Source: an uncultured Bacillota bacterium (GTDB taxonomy: Bacteria > Sysuimicrobiota > Sysuimicrobiia > Sysuimicrobiales > Segetimicrobiaceae). Taken from it: DNA of 64,000 nucleotides. Of the stretch, positions 55,066-64,000 are shown piece by piece (position 1 is the stretch's first letter; each line of letters begins with the position of its first letter). A program made the translations under genes and the position numbers. The stretch covers positions 64,001-128,000 of the forward strand of contig CAWDRG010000011.1 in the NCBI GenBank assembly GCA_963804645.1, written 5' to 3'. Below the pieces are notes generated by a model. The model was given only the letters and a program-made list of their open reading frames with translations. It ran no database searches and was not told the origin of the DNA.

Positions 55066-56541
55066 CTACGGCATGCCTTTCGACGTCGCAGTGGGTGGCG
55101 CGGCGCCTCCTGTCTTGCCGGTCGGGCCAACTGACGGTTGAACGACTGGAGTCGCGGGGCCTGTCTTACCCGACCCGCCTCGAGCGGTCGAGGATCCCGA
55201 AGAGCCGCCGCTCAACCACCAGCCCGTATAATTGCTTCCGTTCCCCGGCTGAGCGTTGGCGTCCCCACCTTTGTCGCCGATCGGTGTGCCTTGCACGGTG
55301 CAGACAGGAGCGATTGGTGTCGCCCCGTCCTGGCCGCGATCGCCCCCGGTGGCTGTCGCGTTGCCCCCATTCTTCCCGCCACCCGGACCGCCAACACCTC
55401 CCAACGCCTTCGCGGCGCCGCCAGTGCCGCCCACGCCGGCCACGACATTCGCGGGTGTATTGGGATCACACTGGGCGTTTGTGAATATCACGGTTCCACC
55501 GGTGCCTCCCACGCCACCTTTCGCGGTCCCGTTGCCTCCAACCCACGAGCCCGACAACCCACCTGATGGACCCGGCCCGCCCGCCGCGTCCGCGCCGCCC
55601 GCCGCATCCGTTGGCGCGGCGACTGCGCTGCCATTCCCGCCTCGCAACTCGCCTGGACCTATCAGCGTGATCGGGGTGCCACTCAGGCCGTTTACGTAGA
55701 CGTCGCCAGCCGCGTTTCCAGGCTCACCCTCGGCATACCCGTCGGCCCCGTTGGCGGCTGTCGCGTCAGCCCTTCCGTTCAGCCCGCTGTCACCACCGGC
55801 GATCGATCCGGTGACGATAACGTTCTCAGCGCAGCACAGCACCACGTCACCGCCCCAGCCCGCTTGTCCGCCAACGGCGGTCGCGCAGCCACCGAACAGT
55901 CCGGTCGCGTCGCTCGTGGCAGTCGCCGATCCGCCATTTCCTCCCTGCTGCCCCTGCACCATACCAGCAATCGTGATTCCACTCGCTGCCGTCAGAGCGA
56001 CCGTCCCGCCGGGCTGCCCGGCACCGCCCTGTGCCCGAACGTACTTGCCTGTCGGTTCAACATCGGATTGACCGTATGCGGCCTGGGCGGCGTAACCGGA
56101 CCCAGCCCCGACCACGCCGTGAACGACGATCGTGCCCCCGGACACAAGCGTAATCCCGGGAGACGGGTCGGTGCCGTTCCACTCGTTCGTCGAGGCGTCC
56201 GGCATTAAGAGGTCCCCGTCGATCTGGATAAGCGCATTGGCGACCAAGGTCAGTTGATCGTTCTGCTTCAACTGGAGCGTCACGCCCGCGTCAAGATAGA
56301 TCATGTCGTATGCGTAGGTCGTATCGGTCGGGTCGGTGGGCAGGAGGTGGTAGGATCCGGATCCGGACGGTGCCGACTGGGGGGGCGGGCACCTCGGCGC
56401 AGTCTTCTGCCCAGGTGAATTCGGTGAGACCGGCGCACAATTCGCCTTCTTCCCCGTAATCACCGAGTAAGCGGCGGCGGCGAGGGCGACAAGAGCCAGA
56501 ACGACCACGAGCTTTACGACCCACGCCAATGTTGTCCCCAT
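55066..56541 (-). CDS. Glycine-rich membrane-anchored/secreted hypothetical protein
   Basis: N-terminal hydrophobic helix; repeated GGxGG-x-V/I units; 491-aa ORF; start uncertain. Confidence 0.7.
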   Translation of the reverse strand: MGTTLAWVVKLVVVLALVALAAAAYSVITGKKANCAPVSPNSPGQKTAPRCPPPQSAPSGSGSYHLLPTDPTDTTYAYDMIYLDAGVTLQLKQNDQLTLVANALIQIDGDLLMPDASTNEWNGTDPSPGITLVSGGTIVVHGVVGAGSGYAAQAAYGQSDVEPTGKYVRAQGGAGQPGGTVALTAASGITIAGMVQGQQGGNGGSATATSDATGLFGGCATAVGGQAGWGGDVVLCCAENVIVTGSIAGGDSGLNGRADATAANGADGYAEGEPGNAAGDVYVNGLSGTPITLIGPGELRGGNGSAVAAPTDAAGGADAAGGPGPSGGLSGSWVGGNGTAKGGVGGTGGTVIFTNAQCDPNTPANVVAGVGGTGGAAKALGGVGGPGGGKNGGNATATGGDRGQDGATPIAPVCTVQGTPIGDKGGDANAQPGNGSNYTGWWLSGGSSGSSTARGGSGKTGPATPVVQPSVGPTGKTGGAAPPTATSKGMP

Positions 56542-56851
56542 CACGAGCGGAACACTCACGCTCACACCAACACCCCCCGGGGGCCACCGTGTCACGGTGC
56601 TTATTGCTCCGTGCGGAGATGCGTGAGACACGTTCAGCGGTGCCGGCGACTCTCCCTTCGTTCCGCACTTCGGTTCGATGACGTCATGTTCGCCCCAAGG
56701 TAGGGGTAAGACGTTGCGCGTACGTGGCCCCGACCTGAGGTGACCCGACACTGCAAGAGCTGGCCGCAAGGCGCCATCACTCGGCCGATATTCGAGAGTG
56801 AGAGCGGCTACGTGCTGTCCCGAACCCAGCACGATCGCCACACGTGGGTCC

Positions 56852-57259
56852 CTAAGAGCGAGATGGCCCTAGGGTTCTTACAAAATCAGCGGGCCGAACG
56901 ATAGGAATGCCGGCGTATTGCTTCAACCGCAGCAAATGTCGGTCTCCCGACACGATGAGATCCGCTCGCCCCAACTCCGCACACTCCAGTACCTGGTTGT
57001 CCGCATCGTCGCGGAGTAGGCGGACCGCCCGATTCGGCCGCACAATTTCTCCAATTCGGCCATTCTGCCGAACGTACGCAAGGATCTCTGCTTCCGGAGT
57101 GTGAAACTTTGCGCGAAGCGTCGTGGCGAGCTCCGCGAGGATGATCGGAGATACGATGAGCACGCACCGCCGCTCCAGAACCGTCTGGTACGCCTCCTCG
57201 GGAAACCCTCCGAAAAGCGCCGAGATGAACACGTTGGTATCGAAGACGGTCCGGAGCAC
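56852..57259 (-). CDS. PIN-domain putative toxin (VapC-like)
   Basis: VFDTNVFISA, AEL, RDDADNQVLECA, IVSGDRHLL; acidic residues intact. Confidence 0.9.
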   Translation of the reverse strand: MLRTVFDTNVFISALFGGFPEEAYQTVLERRCVLIVSPIILAELATTLRAKFHTPEAEILAYVRQNGRIGEIVRPNRAVRLLRDDADNQVLECAELGRADLIVSGDRHLLRLKQYAGIPIVRPADFVRTLGPSRS

Positions 57260-57262
57260 CGA

Positions 57263-57511
57263 TCACCGCCCGTGCAGAATCCGATCCACGTCATCCTCGG
57301 TGCGAATGACAAGGCCTGCTTCCCGGGCAGCTCGATTAGCCGACCGACTAATTCGGGAGAATTCGGCTTTCTCCCGACTAATAAGATACGCTTCCCACAT
57401 AGCTCTGAGCAACTCACTCTTAGTCTTTTGTTCCTTCCTCGCCGTCTGCTCGATCTGTCGTGCAATCCCCGGGGGAACAGAAAAGGCGAGGATCTTGGTC
57501 GATCGTCCCAT
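57263..57511 (-). CDS. Ribbon-helix-helix (CopG-like) antitoxin
   Basis: ILAFSVPP..IEQTARKE..TKSELLR; 3 bp upstream of the PIN gene. Confidence 0.8.
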   Translation of the reverse strand: MGRSTKILAFSVPPGIARQIEQTARKEQKTKSELLRAMWEAYLISREKAEFSRISRSANRAAREAGLVIRTEDDVDRILHGR

Positions 57512-57844: not shown

Positions 57845-57895
57845 TGGCGCGCCCGGAGGGATTCGAACCCCCGACTCGCTGCTTACAAAGGTAGG
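57845..57895 (-). other. tRNA 3'-end remnant (Arg-like acceptor end), probable att site
   Basis: Minus strand GGGGG-TTCGAAT-CCCTC T-arm, then CGGGCGC-G-CCA; degenerate anticodon arm; no D-arm or 5' acceptor strand. Confidence 0.75.
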
Positions 57896-58205: not shown

Positions 58206-58640
58206 CTATTCTCCGAACGCGGCGAACCAAGCCCGCGCTTCTTGCATGAGCGTCCGCGATCGCAGGATTCGGACGCCCTCCCCCGGCCGGTAGTGACGGA
58301 TGTTGTGGGTGATGAGAAGGCCCGCTCCGCCGCCGATCGCCGCCGCCAGGATGGGGATGTCCTTCACATCAGCGAGACCGCGCGCGCGTTCGATGTCATG
58401 CGCGGTCGGACGATAGATTCGGACGGCGACAGTACGCGGAAACTCGTCGAAAAATGGTACGCGCCGAGCAATTTGAGAGACAGGGTTCGTCGAACCTCCC
58501 CGACGGCGGCTTCCGGCAATATGCGATTGAGGAGGCCGATCTCGCCGAGGACCAGAATCGCGTGGCTCGCCCGCGGCGCGAGAAGAGGTCCGCGATCAGG
58601 ACGTCGGCATCAAGACAGACCGAAACAGGCTCAGTCTTCG
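58206..58640 (-). pseudogene. PIN-domain toxin pseudogene (multiple frameshifts)
   Basis: VCLDADVLIA / ASHAILVLGE..E / ADVKDIPILAAA..LITHNIRHY pieces in different frames. Confidence 0.8.
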
Positions 58641-58870
58641 CGGTCAGGACCACCCAACTCTTTCAGCGAGAGCTCTCGCCCCCGGCGCAGCCGCTCCATC
58701 TCGGCGGCCAAGCGCGGCACGAGAAGCAATCGCTGGCTGAGGAGCACCGCCCCATCGAGATCGACGACAGTCAACGGATCTCCCTCGTCGAGGCGATACT
58801 TCTTGCGAAGAGCGGCCGGAAGCGTTAGGGTCCCGCGGCCACGGATTTGTATGGTTGTAGTCCGGATCAT
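58631..58870 (-). CDS. AbrB/MazE-family antitoxin
   Basis: IRGRGTLTLPAALRKKYRLDEGD; promoter TTGGCA-18-TATACT at 58910-58881. Confidence 0.85.
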   Translation of the reverse strand: MIRTTTIQIRGRGTLTLPAALRKKYRLDEGDPLTVVDLDGAVLLSQRLLLVPRLAAEMERLRRGRELSLKELGGPDRED

Positions 58871-58951
58871 CCTGAAAGTCAGTATAGTAGAATTTCCGAG
58901 ATCTTGCCAACCAACAAAAGCGGGCTTGCCGCGGGTCGCGCGTTAGGCCGC

Positions 58952-58980
58952 TTGTCAACGAAAGTGCCTCCTGGTAACAT
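58952..58980 (+). promoter_or_regulatory. Sigma70-type promoter of the T-box-aspS unit
   Basis: TTGTCA, 17 bp, TAACAT with extended -10 TG. Confidence 0.65.
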
Positions 58981-58985
58981 CATCG

Positions 58986-59232
58986 CAAAGTGATGACGGA
59001 GACGAGTCGCGTGAACGTGCCGGAGTCAAGAGAGCTGCCGACGGTGTGAGGGCAGTCTCCGGGGCGCGAAGACACTCCATCAGCTGCGGGGAAGAACGGC
59101 GCCACTGCTCAGTAGGCCCCGACGGTACTCCGCCGTTAGCAGAGTCGAGGTCGCTGCGAGCAATGTGACGGAGCGACGAAGTTCGGTGGCACCACGATGA
59201 CCCCCCGTCCGAATGCGCGGGGGACTTTCGTT
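58986..59232 (+). promoter_or_regulatory. T-box riboswitch, Asp (GAC) specifier
   Basis: Stem I GTGATGACGGAGACGAGT..AGAGAG..GGTGTGA..GAA-GAC-ACTCC; antiterminator TTCGG-TGGCACC-ACG..CGT-CCGAA; terminator CCCCCCG..CGGGGGA-CTTTCGTT. Confidence 0.88.
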
Positions 59233-59246
59233 GTCGGGGTGCCACC

Positions 59247-60549
59247 GTGAACGCGTGTTTGGACAACGCAAATCGATCAACACATCGGCCGTCGCATTCG
59301 CCTCGCCGGCTGGCTTCACCAATGGCGACGGCTTGCCCACGTCGGGTTTCTGATCCTTCGGGATGGCAAGGGTCTAGCCCAGATAGTGGTCGAGGACGCC
59401 GAGCTTTCGGACCGGCTTGATAGGTGCCACCGCGAGTCGGTGCTTCGGATCGAGGGTGTCGCACGGGGAAACCCCCAGGCACCCGGCGGCATCGAGGTCA
59501 GCGAGCCGTCTGTGGAGATCATGGCAGCGACCGCGAGCGCGCCTCCACTCGACCTCAGTCGACCGACCGTCAAGGCCGCGTTGCCTTCCATCCTTGACCA
59601 TGCCGCCGTTGCCCTGCGGCATCCCCGACTTCGCGCCCCGTTCGACATCGCGGCCGCGTCGATGGCAGGGTTCCGGGCGGTTCTGCGTGCCGCAGATTTT
59701 GTTGAGATACAGACCCCGAAGATCGTCGGATCGGCTACCGAGAGCGGTGCGAGCGTGTTCGCGGTCGAGTACTTCGGCGGTCGGGCGTTCCTAGCGCAGA
59801 GTCCGCAACTGTACAAGCAGGTCATGGTTGGTGTGTTCGAGCGTGTCTTCGAGATCGGTCCGGTCTTCCGCGCGGAGGCTCACGACACCCCGCGCCATCT
59901 CAATGAGTATGTCTCGATGGACATGGAGATGGGCTTCATAGACGATCACACCACGGTCATGAGCATGCTCACGCGGGTCATCGCTGGGATGGTCCGTGCC
60001 ATCCGCGAGCAGGCGCCTGACTCGTTGGCCCGACTCGATGTCACTCTCCCGGATGTCCCACAGACGATCCCGACGCTGCACTTCACCGAGGCCCTCGCGT
60101 TAGTCGAGCGGGATAGTGGAGCGCCTCCGGAAAGCGACGTCGACCTCACGCCGCAACACGAGCGCTGGCTCGGGCGATGGGCGCGGGAGACGCACGCGTC
60201 TGACTATCTCTTCGTTGTGGGCTACCCAATGGCCAAGCGTCCCTTCTACACGCATCCCGACCACTCCCGCCCAGGGTACGCCAACGGCTTCGACCTCCTG
60301 TTCCGAGGGACTGAGCTCGTGACGGGCGGTCAACGTCTCCACCGCTATGACGACTATATGCTCGCGCTAAGCGAGCGTGGTCTGTCGCCCGAGCCGCTGA
60401 CAGGGTATCTTGAGGCGTTCAAGCACGGGATGCCGCCCCATGGTGGCTTCGCGATCGGGCTCGAGCGATGGGTCGCGGGCGTGGTCGGCGCATCAAACAT
60501 TCGTGAGGTGACGCTGTTTCCACGCGACCAGCGTCGAGTCACGCCCTGA
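59247..60549 (+). CDS. aspS: Aspartate--tRNA(Asp/Asn) ligase, non-discriminating archaeal-type; 1-nt frame offset right after GTG start
   Basis: LAGWLH..FLILRD..QIV OB fold, APGG loop, LAQSPQLYKQ, FRAE, GMPPHGGFAIGLER, LFPRD. Confidence 0.9.
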
Positions 60550-60570: not shown

Positions 60571-60843
60571 TCACTGTATCCGCAACCGCTCTATCGCCCC
60601 TACCCGACGGTGCGCCCGACGAAGGTCTGCGCCCACGAGGCTGCTATACCGCAGGGTAGTGCTCAGACTCTCATGCCCGAGGAGTCGGCGCACCTCGTCA
60701 AGACCGGCACCGCCGCGCAGCCAACTCGTCGCGGCGAAGTGGCGCAGGGCGTGCGGGTGCAAACGTCTATTCAGGGGCAAACCAGCCTTGGCGCTCAGCC
60801 GGTGTAGAACCTGGACAAAGTGCCGATACTTGAGCGGCCGGCC
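60571..60843 (-). pseudogene. Tyrosine recombinase C-terminal fragment
   Basis: HPHALRHFAATSWLRGGA..LLGHESLSTTLRY; homology stops at 60843. Confidence 0.88.
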
Positions 60844-61575
60844 AGTAACTGGGGGTTTCCTCCCCGCAGAACGTTCTCGGCAGTAAATGTGCCAGAAAAT
60901 AGCATAGGTGTTCCGCGGAGGAGCACAGCCCTTCGCCTCAGTGGTGACCGTCAGGAGCTACGCGGTTGCCTCCTCGACCTCGACGATCTCACACCTAGTC
61001 ACGGACACACCGCGCCGAGAAGGCTACGGCGCGGGACGCCAACCGGCACCGTCATTGCGGATTTCTTCTGGCCCTTCTTGGCGCGTCCTCGTCGCGTCCG
61101 GAATCGAAACCCCAGCATCCCGGTCATCGCGGTTCCCAGCAGCACGAGACTCGAAGGTTCGGGTGCGGGGACAATCGTGCTGTCGAAAGTCAGGCCGCTC
61201 GTAAAGCTTTGGCCTCCGAAGCTCCCGGTAATTGGCCCATTCTTCGACTGCGCGTAGAACGTGTAATCGAGGTTGTTACCGCCGGCGGCAATAGGACCGA
61301 GGTTACTCACGTTGGTGAACAGAAAGGAGTTGCCGAAACTGAATCCGGTCTTCGTACCGCCATCACAACCCGCCCCCGCCGTATCCGCGCAATCGTCCAC
61401 ACCCGCCGAGGTGAAGTTTCCGTTGGTGAGAACACCAAAATTGAGTGTGGGATCAAAGGTGTCGAAATTATTGATGCCGTTGAAATAACTCACGTTAAGA
61501 GCGGCGGTCTGCGCACTGTTTGGAAGCAGTGTGAAGTCATACAGATACGTATAGATACCGTTGTTGAGAAAGGCC

Positions 61576-62944
61576 GAGCTAAAGTCGAGAGGTGTGGAAA
61601 TTCAAGTGGCGTACCCTTTCCGAGATCCACCCACATCGGAACCTCCCTTGCCGGGGAGGGGAAAGGAGTACGCCAGTGTCAGCATATCAGCCACAACGGG
61701 GGTTGGACAAGGAGGAAGTCCGCTCGACTTTGGACGTGCTCGCGCGTGAAGGCGCGCAGCGCATGCTGATTGGCGCCTTGGAGCAAGAAGTCGAGGAGTT
61801 CCTCGGCCGGGCTCGCTATGAGCGTGGCGGGGCTCGACGGCGTGGGTACCGGAACGGCGCGGGGAAGCCGCGCAAGATCGCGGTCGGCTGCGGGACGCTC
61901 GAGGTCCGCCCACCGCGGGTACGGGACACTGAGGAGGGGTTTCAGTCCCAGCTGCTGCCGCGGTATCAGCGGTCGAGCAATGCGGTCCGGGCGTTGCTGC
62001 CGGAGCTCTACCTGCAAGGCTTGGCCACTGGCGACTTTGAGCCGGCCCTCCGCACCTTGCTCGGGGAGGCCGCGCCCCTGAGTCAGACGTCGATCGTCCG
62101 CTTGAAGGCGAGCTGGCAGGCCGAATACGACACCTGGGCCCACCGCCGGCTGGCCGCCCGCTACGTCTATTGTTGGGCCGACGGCCTCTACTTAAAGGCG
62201 GGGCCCGCCGATGAGAAGACGGCCGTGCTGATCATCATCGGGGTGACGGAAGACGGCCACAAAGAGCTTCTCACGATGATCGAAGGCTACCGTGAATCCC
62301 GTGAGAGCTGGCGGGATGTATTGCGGGACCTGCGCCGGCGTGGCCTCAAAGACGTCCGGGTGTTCACCGGGGACGGCGGTCTCGGGCTCTGGGCCGCGGT
62401 TGGCGAAGTCTATCCAGAGGCGCGGCAGCAGCTGTGCTGGTGCCACAAGATGCTCAACGTGTTGGACAAGCTGCCGCAGCGCCTCCAGCCGGAGGCGCGG
62501 ACCTTGATGCGCGACGTTTACACCGCGCCCACGCGCGAGGAGGCCGACGCCCGGATCAAGAAATTCGCGCTGCGGTTCGAGCGGGACTATCCGCGCGCGG
62601 TGGCATCCCTCACCGATCACCAGGCCGAGTTGCTTACGTACTACGATTTCCCGCGGGAGCACTGGAAGAGTCTCCGGACGTCCAACCCGATCGAATCGGT
62701 CTTTGATCCGGTGCGCCTGCGAACGCGCGCGACACGCCGGATGCGCAGAGCACAAACTGGACTGCATCTGGTCTTCCAATTAATCCGTCGGGCAGAGCAG
62801 CGATGGCGTCGAATCGACGCACCGCACTTGGTCGCCAAGGTGCTTGAGGGTGTTCAGTTCGTCGATGGTGTGGAAGTGCTTGCGTCAGCGAAGAAAAGGA
62901 AGGGCGCCGCTTGATGCAATTTCCACACCTCTTGACTTTAGCTC
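61576..62944 (+). mobile_element. IS256-family insertion sequence (1369 bp)
   Basis: 27-bp terminal IRs (26/27 match, GAGCTAAAGTC[G/A]AGAGGTGTGGAAATT); 8-bp direct repeat GAAAGGCC at 61568-61575 and 62945-62952. Confidence 0.95.
61592..62914 (+). CDS. IS256 (Mutator-type) transposase
   Basis: YRNG, PRVR, WADG, ESRESW, GDG, QLCWCHK, RTSNPIES; true start may be further downstream. Confidence 0.93.
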   Translation: MWKFKWRTLSEIHPHRNLPCRGGERSTPVSAYQPQRGLDKEEVRSTLDVLAREGAQRMLIGALEQEVEEFLGRARYERGGARRRGYRNGAGKPRKIAVGCGTLEVRPPRVRDTEEGFQSQLLPRYQRSSNAVRALLPELYLQGLATGDFEPALRTLLGEAAPLSQTSIVRLKASWQAEYDTWAHRRLAARYVYCWADGLYLKAGPADEKTAVLIIIGVTEDGHKELLTMIEGYRESRESWRDVLRDLRRRGLKDVRVFTGDGGLGLWAAVGEVYPEARQQLCWCHKMLNVLDKLPQRLQPEARTLMRDVYTAPTREEADARIKKFALRFERDYPRAVASLTDHQAELLTYYDFPREHWKSLRTSNPIESVFDPVRLRTRATRRMRRAQTGLHLVFQLIRRAEQRWRRIDAPHLVAKVLEGVQFVDGVEVLASAKKRKGAA

Positions 62945-63589
62945 GAAAGGCCGCAGCTGTGAGACTTCCACTCCAATCGGTTCCGGTGATCGCTGTGGTT
63001 AACGGCGCTCCGGCCGCTGCGCCGAACCCGCAGCCCGCTGCGGTCGCAGCGGCGCAGTCGACGTCGCCCGCGAAGGCCGGTACGGGCCCCATCGCAAGCA
63101 AACAAAGCGACACACACGCAATACCGATGTAGATCGCCGGGATGTGGCCCAGGTGTGCGAACATAGACCTCAAGGCGACAGCGAACCTTCCCGCCTCATG
63201 ACTATTGCGGTACATGCGCCCGGACATGACGACCTCCTTCGCGGCCCTCGCCGAATCGCAGGGAGTTCCACTCCCGGGCGAGTGGCTGCATGTGCGATAG
63301 CCGCACGAGTACGGCATCAACCGTGGTCGAGTTCACGTGACATGTCAACCCTCGCTAACCTTGCACGCAGGTGATGCCGTCCAACGCGTTGGTGGGCGTT
63401 ACCCGCGATGCGCTACCGCACCACAAGCCATGGTCGCAGACACCCCAAGATCGCCCCTTTGTGCGGCCTCGCGTTTCGTTTTTCACCTCGACTATTTAGC
63501 TCTTTTGCGCCAGCTCCTTCGTTCATGCGAAGGCTTTACGCGGCTCAGTAGGTATGGCGAACAGCAGGTCGCTCATATTCTTCCGTTGA

Positions 63590-64000
63590 TCTGACCAATA
63601 TTCCAGCCGCAGCCGTTCAGTCGCTCCGGCTCGGCGGTGTGCCCGCCGAAGGTCGGCGCCCACGAGACTGCTATACCGGAGCGTGGTCGTGAGGCTCTCG
63701 TGGCCAAGGAGCCGCCGTACCTCGTCGAGACCGGCGCCGCTCCGCAGCCAGCTCGTCGCGGCGAAGTGGCGCAAGGCGTGCGGGTGAGGCGCCTATTCGC
63801 CGGCAGACCGGCCTTGGTGCTCAGCCGATGGAGCACCTGGACGAGGTGACGATACTTCAGCGGCCGGCCCGCGCGGTCGCAGAATAGGAACGCCTCGGAC
63901 GACGGCGCCGGGTGACGTGCGAGCCACGCCTTGAGGGCCCGCGCCGTTGTGGGGCCGACGAACGCCACCCGATCCTTCCGGCCCTTACCGGCACGCACGA
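63590..64000 (-). pseudogene. Tyrosine recombinase/integrase, C-terminal part (continues past window), 1-nt frameshift near 63787
   Basis: GKGRKDRV..LF..; HALRHFAATSWL..LLGHESLTTTLRY in a shifted frame. Confidence 0.85.

Follow-up and report, generated by a model that had tools for sequence, protein, structure and literature searches.

A T-box leader with an aspartate specifier before an archaeal-type second aspartyl-tRNA synthetase gene in a Segetimicrobiaceae genome

T-boxes that specify aspartate (Asp) are already known, and so are archaeal-type genes for a second aspartyl-tRNA synthetase (AspRS). Here, we describe a locus in which the two stand together. It lies at positions 58,952 to 60,549 of a 64,000-nucleotide (nt) stretch of DNA, called the window below, from an uncultured Bacillota bacterium of the family Segetimicrobiaceae (GenBank assembly GCA_963804645.1, contig CAWDRG010000011.1, positions 64,001 to 128,000). 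We read the locus as a T-box riboswitch that is specific for tRNA-Asp and controls a second, archaeal-type AspRS (AspRS2, encoded by aspS2), and we put the probability of this reading at about 0.75. The pair of leader and aspS2 is real, but ordinary: it is one more copy of a module common in soil bacteria.

The closest comparison is with Clostridium acetobutylicum. Saad et al. reportedly described, in JBC in 2012 and in PNAS in 2013, a "two-codon T-box" of its ND-AspRS/GatCAB asparagine operon (ND, non-discriminating). The asparagine (Asn) specifier AAC is said to overlap GAA there, with the amidotransferase in the same operon. As in that species, a T-box in the window precedes an extra archaeal/non-discriminating AspRS gene, and the direct route is also encoded in the genome. 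Unlike that system, the specifier is GAC, the gene stands alone, gatCAB lies elsewhere (contig C17), and the fold of the leader without uncharged tRNA (the OFF fold) covers the Shine–Dalgarno (SD) sequence. Two clostridial loci in our sample (L082 and L084) carry C. acetobutylicum-like leaders. According to the accessible part of Wels 2008 (PMC2494555), one of the three aspS genes of C. acetobutylicum is T-box regulated. In the accessible literature, T-box control of an archaeal-type second AspRS gene was described only for Clostridium, and a second AspRS in bacteria is called rare in the accessible part of PMC4206432.

AspRS2 resembles the AspRS2 of Thermus (1N9W; 3KFU) in its length, in having no GAD domain, in the His of the G-[WF]-L-H motif, and in the Pro of APGG. 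As in Thermus and Deinococcus, the second AspRS is found beside a bacterial-type one, with asparaginyl-tRNA synthetase (AsnRS) and GatCAB also present. Thermus and Deinococcus have no Asn synthetases, and AspRS2 is their only route to Asn (PMC4206432, accessible part); in contrast, two AsnB-like genes are present here. At the Deinococcus locus of our sample (L078), no T-box motif was seen upstream, and its row fell outside the T-box-bearing clade of our tree.

Two other types of T-box leader are relevant. The thrZ and tyrZ genes of Bacillus subtilis are T-box-controlled spare synthetases that are silent until the cognate tRNA is uncharged. Like them, aspS2 encodes a second synthetase for the same amino acid. 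They are paralogs of the same bacterial type, whereas the spare enzyme here is archaeal in type and horizontally acquired, and its tRNA range is probably wider. In actinobacterial ileS T-boxes, uncharged tRNA stabilises an antisequestrator, and otherwise a long, more stable helix masks the SD (accessible parts of PMC7583486 and PMC12647780). The aspS2 leader is likewise predicted to set a stable long helix over the SD against an antisequestrator. Most translational ileS T-boxes specify Ile and have a short Stem I that lacks the elbow-binding motif, whereas the aspS2 leader specifies Asp, retains a terminator-like hairpin, and bears AGAGA and GGUGNGA in a Stem I of full length.

The leader and its tRNA partners

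The features of the locus are listed here with positions in the window.

58952..58980, + strand: promoter-like site TTGTCA-17-TAACAT with TG before the -10 element (pattern scan, 9/12 matches)
58984..59215, + strand: T-box leader with Stem I and its specifier loop, Stem II, IIA/B, Stem III and antiterminator (RF00230, 69.8 bits)
59071..59073, + strand: specifier codon GAC (Asp), GAA before it and A after it (specifier columns of the cmscan alignment; 5/5 genus copies)
59187..59193, + strand: T-box bulge UGGCACC, its UGGC complementary to the GCCA 3' end of a G73 tRNA (RF00230 alignment)
59202..59233, + strand: terminator-like hairpin of 7 pairs (6 G-C), then a U-poor tail, ACUUUCGUUG (pattern scan; hairpin alone -14.3 kcal/mol)
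59230..59252, + strand: 3' strand of the long OFF helix, with SD-like GGGG at 59236-59239 and GTG start at 59247-59249; pairs with 59181-59203
59247..60549, + strand: aspS2, archaeal-type AspRS; GTG start at 59247, extra A at 59250/59251 that shifts the frame; AspRS frame 59251-60549 (432 aa)

The window was searched with the Rfam T-box model RF00230. At the E-value threshold, the match at 58984-59215 (+) covered the model from end to end (1-219 of 219) with 69.8 bits and an E-value of 4.2e-15, though below the gathering score of 93. The first-pass annotation of this DNA, made from the letters alone, had called a complete Asp T-box here, and each motif that it named was found base for base. 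In Stem I, AGAGAG was at 59029-59034, GGTGTGA at 59043-59049, and GAA plus GAC at 59068-59073. UGAUGA (GA/K-turn), AGAGAG, GGUGUGA, and GAA-GAC-A all fell in the matching columns of the model. In the antiterminator, TTCGG (59182-59186) pairs with CCGAA (59209-59213) and ACG (59194-59196) with CGT (59206-59208). These pairs are all standard, and they enclose the conserved 7-nt bulge TGGCACC at 59187-59193. The segment GGUGGCACCACG was unchanged in the five copies of the leader in the genus, and GAC and GGTGGCACCACG were invariant in the leaders of the genus orthologs.

The five other T-boxes of the genome served as an internal control. The same cmscan columns gave CUC before ilvB (acetolactate synthase), CCC/CCA before proC, UGG before DAHP synthase, ACC before thrS, and GUC before valS, a sensible specifier in every case (5/5). 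The single tRNA-Asp of the genome has the anticodon GUC, the discriminator G73, and an encoded CCA. GAC matches this anticodon, UGGC matches the G73-CCA end, and the downstream gene encodes an AspRS. Among the six T-boxes of the genome, the aspS2 leader alone had a UGGC bulge. The tRNA-Asn(GUU) also has G73 and an encoded CCA. Because G73 is common to tRNA-Asp and tRNA-Asn, the bulge cannot separate Asp from Asn, and the codon alone discriminates. Codon and bulge had been presented as two independent features that agree with the gene; both do fit, but the bulge counts for less as independent evidence than was assumed there.

By pairing rules, GAC:GUC (tRNA-Asp) forms three Watson–Crick pairs, GAC:GUU (tRNA-Asn) has a G-U pair at the first codon position, and GAC is the sole specifier able to pair with both substrates of a non-discriminating AspRS. 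On these rules, and with GAC rather than AAC kept in most leaders read, a GAC leader might sense two tRNAs to match a two-tRNA enzyme, so that depletion of either charged species would switch AspRS2 on. In that case, the platform peculiar to the genus, with its terminator-like hairpin inside an SD-covering helix, could act on both transcription and translation. We regard such a dual sensor as a long shot.

The OFF fold and the synthetase gene

The promoter called earlier was matched in the pattern scan by a promoter-like site at 58952-58980. Two promoter-like sites were observed in the region, versus 0.1 expected in shuffles. TTGAC and CCTGGTA of the promoter region were kept in 5/5 genus copies. 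The second promoter-like site (58910-58881, − strand) stands back to back with the one at 58952-58980 (+), one towards a MazE-like open reading frame (ORF) and the other towards the T-box leader.

The 3' part of the leader folded as one long hairpin with a minimum free energy (MFE) of -61.8 kcal/mol (z -3.9). Its inner stem (CCCCCCGU with GCGGGGG, -14.3 kcal/mol alone, tail ACUUUCGUUG) is the competing terminator of the first-pass annotation, and the pattern scan called a single terminator-like hairpin at that place (59202-59223, tail ACTTTCGTTG). The outer stem pairs the T-box core at 59181-59203 with 59230-59252; 17 of 19 positions were paired, as counted from the fold, and the stem spans the GGGG and reaches into the GTG. 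This OFF fold, in which the T-box core pairs with the SD and the start, had been missed. It had -43.3 kcal/mol, versus -3.7 kcal/mol for the bare antiterminator; an OFF fold much more stable than the antiterminator is usual in T-boxes. The MFE fold paired GGCACC with GGUGCC beside the SD in 5/5 genus copies.

In the congeners G001 and G003, the U-rich tail is deleted and a GGAGG SD is retained inside the helix, so control there is hardly by termination. We read the platform as an SD sequestrator that, in the genome of the window (G000) and in G002 and G005, still holds a weak terminator. By the modeled pairing of the T-box core with both SD and start codon, control appears to be exerted on translation and not just through a terminator-like element.

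In the proposed mechanism, the leader would start at the sigma-70-like promoter, and the GAC specifier of Stem I would read the anticodon of tRNA-Asp. By the known mechanism of the family, the GCCA end of uncharged tRNA-Asp would pair with the UGGC bulge and hold the antiterminator/antisequestrator. Without uncharged tRNA, the RNA would drop into the far more stable long hairpin. The inner part of this hairpin would resemble a weak intrinsic terminator. Its outer part would tie the T-box core to the SD-like GGGG and the GTG, which would block translation initiation, with a transcription stop also possible. The level of AspRS2 would go up when tRNA-Asp charging goes down, as for an inducible auxiliary enzyme beside the housekeeping bacterial-type AspRS.

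AspRS2 has 432 aa and consists of an OB-fold anticodon domain (PF01336) and a class II core (PF00152) only. The GAD domain (PF02938) is carried by relatives of the housekeeping AspRS; a short form without the GAD insertion marks the archaeal type in the accessible part of PMC4206432. The enzyme passed both equivalog models for aspartate--tRNA(Asn) ligase, NF003483 with 535.1 bits against 353 and TIGR00458, just over, with 375.4 against 368.4; AsnRS models scored far under their cut-offs. Its best PDB match was the AspRS2 of Thermus thermophilus (1N9W/3KFU, E 6.5e-115), aligned end to end. H23 (GWLH) and P78 (QAPGG) aligned with the His and Pro of 1N9W; in the Thermococcus enzyme (1B8A, 3NEL), Trp and Lys take their place. 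The His position was kept in 29 of 30 relatives and the Pro in 26 of 30. No relevant paper on W26H and K85P was found in the accessible literature, and a preprint, in its accessible part, links the L1-loop Pro to the tolerance of U36. By its sequence, AspRS2 is a further AspRS, archaeal in type, that shows the His and Pro signature of the Thermus enzyme. The earlier assignment to the short archaeal type holds on the domain content, the two models, and the His/Pro pattern. It had further been called a non-discriminating AspRS with the APGG loop; the Pro of the loop and the His are present, but non-discrimination is predicted from sequence.

The ORF had correctly been taken as an AspRS, but the frameshift directly after its GTG start had been missed. 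The GTG at 59247, 7 bases 3' of the SD-like GGGG, is out of frame by one base. The four genus orthologs start with GTG or ATG in frame, and GTGAACG of the window corresponds to GTGACG in G002. Four peat-metagenome runs (X1 to X4) included parts of the stretch, and a single contig, from X1, covered 59250 (Logan, 518 nt, depth 3.65). It was without the extra A at 59250 and had zero mismatches elsewhere over 58949-59375 (427 bases). In this assembly, gatA is likewise broken into two frames, at a C6 run (C17:467740-467800, outside the window). As gatA is broken at a homopolymer though it is needed (no GlnRS scored above the cut-off), the assembly appears to have homopolymer indel errors, and other "broken" genes in the window may be artefacts. 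Most likely, the extra A is a consensus error or a minor variant, and the population has an intact gene. A start at the rare codon ACG (59251) is conceivable, but it is superfluous given the X1 contig. The first canonical in-frame start, at 59386, was rejected as an alternative; it would cost 45 residues of the OB fold.

The X1 contig departs from the window after 59375, with 92 unlike letters, and a contig of run X3 bridges this point unchanged. The departure may be a low-coverage misjoin or a strain variant.

Spread of the unit and rival readings

We searched 60 related genomes, including 6 other genomes of the genus and 16 of other genera of the family. Orthologs of aspS2, 68-79% identical, were found in 4 of the 6 congeners and not in G006 (97% complete) or G004 (65% complete). 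No ortholog was found in the 16 genomes of other genera of the family, in which the best matches were AsnRS-like (30-33%). All four orthologs were preceded by an equally spaced T-box leader (55-78 bits). Seven loci of other families of the order, with homologs of 39-48% identity, were without such a leader; among these, L016 comes from an unpublished genome (G034), and the negative also rests on G049 of the same genus.

With the congeners, only the leader and gene were common, and the flanks differed. None of the ORFs that flank the locus in the window was found beside aspS2 in the four congeners. In G002 and G005, the unit lies in backbone that corresponds to C9:289-304k of G000. In G001 and G003, it lies ~3 kb from inverted homologs (56-67% identical) of the genes at 50.5-53.9k of the window. 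The congener flanks are ordinary genes (VIT1/rubrerythrin, MFS transporter, hydrolase, SDR, Fpg, and ligase) with one rve transposase (G005), and no tRNA genes were found within ~9 kb of the four loci. A recent one-off cargo does not fit a unit that occurs in non-mobile neighborhoods in 4/6 congeners and is common in other phyla.

A wider scan took one genome per species and gave 80 loci with an archaeal-type AspRS. The motif GGTGGNACCNCG was found <=500 nt upstream in 49 of them (Chloroflexota, Actinomycetota, Bacillota, and Dormibacterota). Eighteen of the 49 were picked for Rfam analysis; RF00230 matched with E <=0.01 in 16 and above the gathering score in 6. The specifier in the 16 leaders read was GAC at the expected place in 13, GAC after AUA in one (by eye), and GAAGAACA in two Clostridia. 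At 49/80 sampled loci, the combination of Asp T-box and archaeal-type AspRS is spread much more widely than one would expect from the accessible literature.

Two further observations were made among these loci. The Clostridium locus L082 has tandem T-box matches (L082:667-926 and 956-1095) before its archaeal-type aspS. The first, with 115 bits, reads GAAGAACA, presumably the pattern of the two-codon T-box of C. acetobutylicum. In a sister family (f2), four genomes have a T-box-less archaeal-type aspS that is directly followed by a 6S RNA gene (L018:2869-3051, L019:2963-3146, L020:1271-1450, and L022:1136-1327); 3/4 of the 6S RNA matches scored above the Rfam gathering score.

A quick maximum-likelihood tree was made with 91 rows, from which L086 (partial, 244 aa) and L021 (contig end) were excluded. 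The five genus copies formed a clade (SH-aLRT 99) and, with two Chloroflexota rows, a set of 7 (SH-aLRT 95). This set fell within a larger clade of 52 Chloroflexota and Actinomycetota rows, and the T-box motif was present in 42 of the 52. Other families of the same order also have archaeal-type AspRS, and these were placed outside the 52-row clade. The housekeeping AspRS had no named relative above 62% identity, and AspRS2 had many at 64-69%, named Chloroflexota or Armatimonadota. All five complete chromosomes with the module also had a ~600-aa class IIb gene with the score profile of a bacterial-type AspRS, a type assigned from size and score.

In the main reading, the leader and gene travel as one unit that entered the genus from a Chloroflexota-like source and was kept in most congeners. 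Our reading of the sequences is that sensor and enzyme spread together among Terrabacteria, probably entered the genus once, and have since moved about within it. Sensor and enzyme pass between phyla as a single module, a tidy example of a self-regulating translation part, and it works after transfer because the sensed tRNA is universal.

The genome was also checked for another aspS, asnS, and gatCAB, and all were present, so aspS2 is not the sole aspS. Contig C19 encodes a bacterial-type AspRS (598 aa) and an AsnRS (539 bits versus a cut-off of 414), with no T-box motif upstream of either. The genes gatC-gatA-gatB are on C17, and two AsnB-like genes scored above the cut-off. No GlnRS scored above the cut-off in the genome, so GatCAB is needed for Gln-tRNA anyway. 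The tRNA-Asn of the genome has U1-A72, the GatCAB determinant (PMC9976931, accessible part). Because of the sequence signature, gatCAB, and the U1-A72 tRNA-Asn, AspRS2 is predicted to be able, probably, to make Asp-tRNA(Asn) as well. With AsnRS and the AsnB-like genes present, this product would be dispensable here. Asn-tRNA could be formed by either route without reliance on AspRS2. With a GAC specifier, expression would follow the charging of tRNA-Asp, which suits a back-up AspRS more than a pathway dedicated to Asn. The simplest role is that of an inducible second AspRS. The first-pass annotation had left two roles side by side, supply of Asp-tRNA(Asn) and back-up of the housekeeping enzyme; the second fits the GAC logic, but a dedicated Asn route fits less well beside AsnRS and two AsnB-like genes.

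Several points weigh against a functional Asp T-box with AspRS2 under its control. At gathering scores, Rfam gave no match in the whole 64-kb window (69.8 bits versus 93). The gathering score of RF00230 in the release used, 93 bits, is a raised cut-off. All six RF00230 matches of the genome were below it, the thrS and valS leaders included, and the aspS2 leader was the top scorer; in the control set, it was exceeded in 2 of the 5 control genomes that gave an RF00230 match. The missing match is therefore a calibration matter for high-GC lineages and not a refutation of the aspS2 T-box; for annotation, the raised cut-off conceals all T-boxes of the genome. Outside the genus, just 7 of 49 related leaders had the exact complement, GGUGCC, next to the SD. 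The tail of the hairpin is poor in U (5 T in 8), and termination may not occur. As assembled, the AspRS frame 59251-60549 has no usable full-length start, with no in-frame ATG, GTG, or TTG before 59386. The extra A is contradicted by a single low-depth contig, and the public gene call has 295 aa (P0015), a miscall that we attribute to the probable one-base assembly error. Swapping the residues at the His and Pro positions reportedly turns the archaeal enzyme non-discriminating. The back-up role is argued from specifier logic alone, and we infer the binding of tRNA, the sequestration of the SD, termination, and the charging of tRNA-Asn.

Two rival readings concern the leader and the frame. Control may be purely by transcription termination, with the SD pairing incidental, as in the other five T-boxes of the genome, which are plain terminators with a hairpin and then a U-rich run (5/5). 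The hairpin with a U-containing tail called at 59202-59233 agrees with this, and a long Stem I with AG bulge and distal loop is tied to transcriptional T-boxes in the accessible part of PMC7583486. However, G001 and G003 have lost the poor tail and still have the helix over their GGAGG SD; most actinomycete relatives are without a U-rich run (<=4 T in any 8-nt window); and the 17/19 pairing of the core with SD and start is much stronger than the inner hairpin (-43.3 versus -14.3 kcal/mol). Control by termination only is thus rather unlikely. It is also distinctly unlikely that aspS2 is dead in this strain, the extra A being real and the cassette decaying cargo in a decaying island. The missing in-frame start before 59386, the 295-aa gene call, and the broken neighbors (a split integrase, an integrase remnant, and insertion sequence (IS) insertions) speak for a dead gene, and the contig that contradicts the assembly is one, at depth 3.65. 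Yet this contig agrees at all other bases of the 427 and restores the exact frame of 4/4 orthologs. The 432-codon frame is otherwise open and retains all columns invariant in 30 relatives, and the break of gatA at a homopolymer points to consensus errors.

The other two rivals accept a working enzyme and give it another purpose than that of an inducible second AspRS. The main job of AspRS2 may be in the indirect asparagine pathway, making Asp-tRNA(Asn) for GatCAB with tRNA-Asp secondary, as in Thermus, Deinococcus, and the C. acetobutylicum operon. The aspartate--tRNA(Asn) ligase models of NCBI, the His and Pro pattern of 1N9W, gatCAB in the genome, and the U1-A72 of tRNA-Asn (PMC9976931, accessible part) all suit this proposal, and the leaders of the two clostridial relatives (L082 and L084) read GAAGAACA, i.e., AAC. 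In the genus, however, the specifier is GAC, not AAC, in 5/5 copies, as in 14/16 other leaders read. AsnRS and two AsnB-like genes leave neither Asn-tRNA nor Asn in need of AspRS2, GatCAB is required for Gln-tRNA regardless, and the unit was not found in the 97% complete congener G006. We consider this role unlikely. T-box-controlled second synthetases that confer resistance are known for other amino acids, and AspRS2 might similarly be an inhibitor-resistant spare that is switched on once a natural inhibitor has disabled the housekeeping AspRS and uncharged tRNA-Asp accumulates. Induction by uncharged tRNA-Asp is the T-box logic, the extra copy stands beside the ~600-aa class IIb gene in 5/5 complete actinomycete and Chloroflexota chromosomes, and the unit is spread across phyla; but no biosynthetic cluster or resistance marker was seen beside aspS2 in any of the five genus loci, and we consider this role highly improbable.

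The low-GC stretch around aspS2

In the window, the unit is surrounded by remnants of mobile DNA.

56852..57511, − strand: PIN-domain toxin at 56852-57259 (PF13470, 56.5 bits) and a small upstream ORF at 57263-57511
57845..57890, no strand assigned: 3'-half fragment of a tRNA-Arg gene, an att-like remnant (repeat and tRNA comparison)
58631..58870, − strand: MazE/AbrB-type antitoxin-like ORF, divergent from the T-box promoter (PF04014, 27.1 bits)
60571..60780, − strand: C-terminal remnant of a tyrosine integrase, convergent with aspS2 (PF00589, 41.1 bits, profile 125-166 of 172)
61575..62945, + strand: IS256-family element with 28-nt inverted repeats, 96% complementary, and a Mutator-type transposase at 61592-62914 (PF00872, 236 bits)
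63523..64000, − strand: tyrosine integrase split in two frames (63523-63774; 63573-64430), running past the window end (PF00589 in both pieces)

Over ~14 kb around aspS2, the GC content was 0.59-0.65, versus 0.69 for the genome. The ORF at 57263-57511 had a weak ribbon-helix-helix match below the cut-off (PF01402, E 0.0013). The integrase remnant at 60571-60780 lies 22 bases past the aspS2 stop and shares a direct repeat of 180 nt (82% identity) with the second integrase, where the repeat is at 63607-63786. The split of the latter (63523-64430) may be an assembly indel, as in gatA, and the "integrase fragments" of the first-pass annotation may partly be assembly artefacts.

The tRNA-Arg fragment includes a 40-nt repeat (window 57845-57884), 90% identical to the 3' end of tRNA-Arg(TCG) at L010:13915-13954 and in the same orientation. 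The whole tRNA-Arg(TCG) gene (L010:13915-13990) lies 10 kb to the right, with two further IS elements between it and the second integrase. The fragment is closer to the tRNA-Arg(TCT) on C19 (95% over 44 nt) than to this neighboring tRNA-Arg(TCG) (84% over 56 nt). Going by the sequence, it looks like the far end of a tRNA-targeting element. Two tyrosine-integrase remnants and low GC were found together with flanking ORFs that are absent beside aspS2 in the four congeners. In this genome, the leader and aspS2 sit in what looks like a decayed, tRNA-Arg-associated island. Of the earlier claim of mobile-island cargo between toxin–antitoxin modules and integrase fragments, this setting stands here, with toxin–antitoxin genes, IS, integrase remnants, low GC, and the tRNA-Arg fragment.

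Three minor observations concern the surroundings. A 591-codon open frame without a Pfam match (window 55066-56841, −) lies at the left edge of the low-GC stretch and may be an orphan gene or a chance frame in GC-rich DNA. Past the right end of the window, at L010:11368-12373 (65368-66373 in window numbering), an IS481/IS3-like element has 38-nt imperfect inverted repeats and a transposase in two overlapping frames; a programmed frameshift and an assembly indel are both conceivable. A second 3'-half fragment of tRNA-Arg, 93% identical to the one at 57845 and without an ARAGORN tRNA call, lies at G000:C4:142044-142089 and may be the att remnant of a related element.

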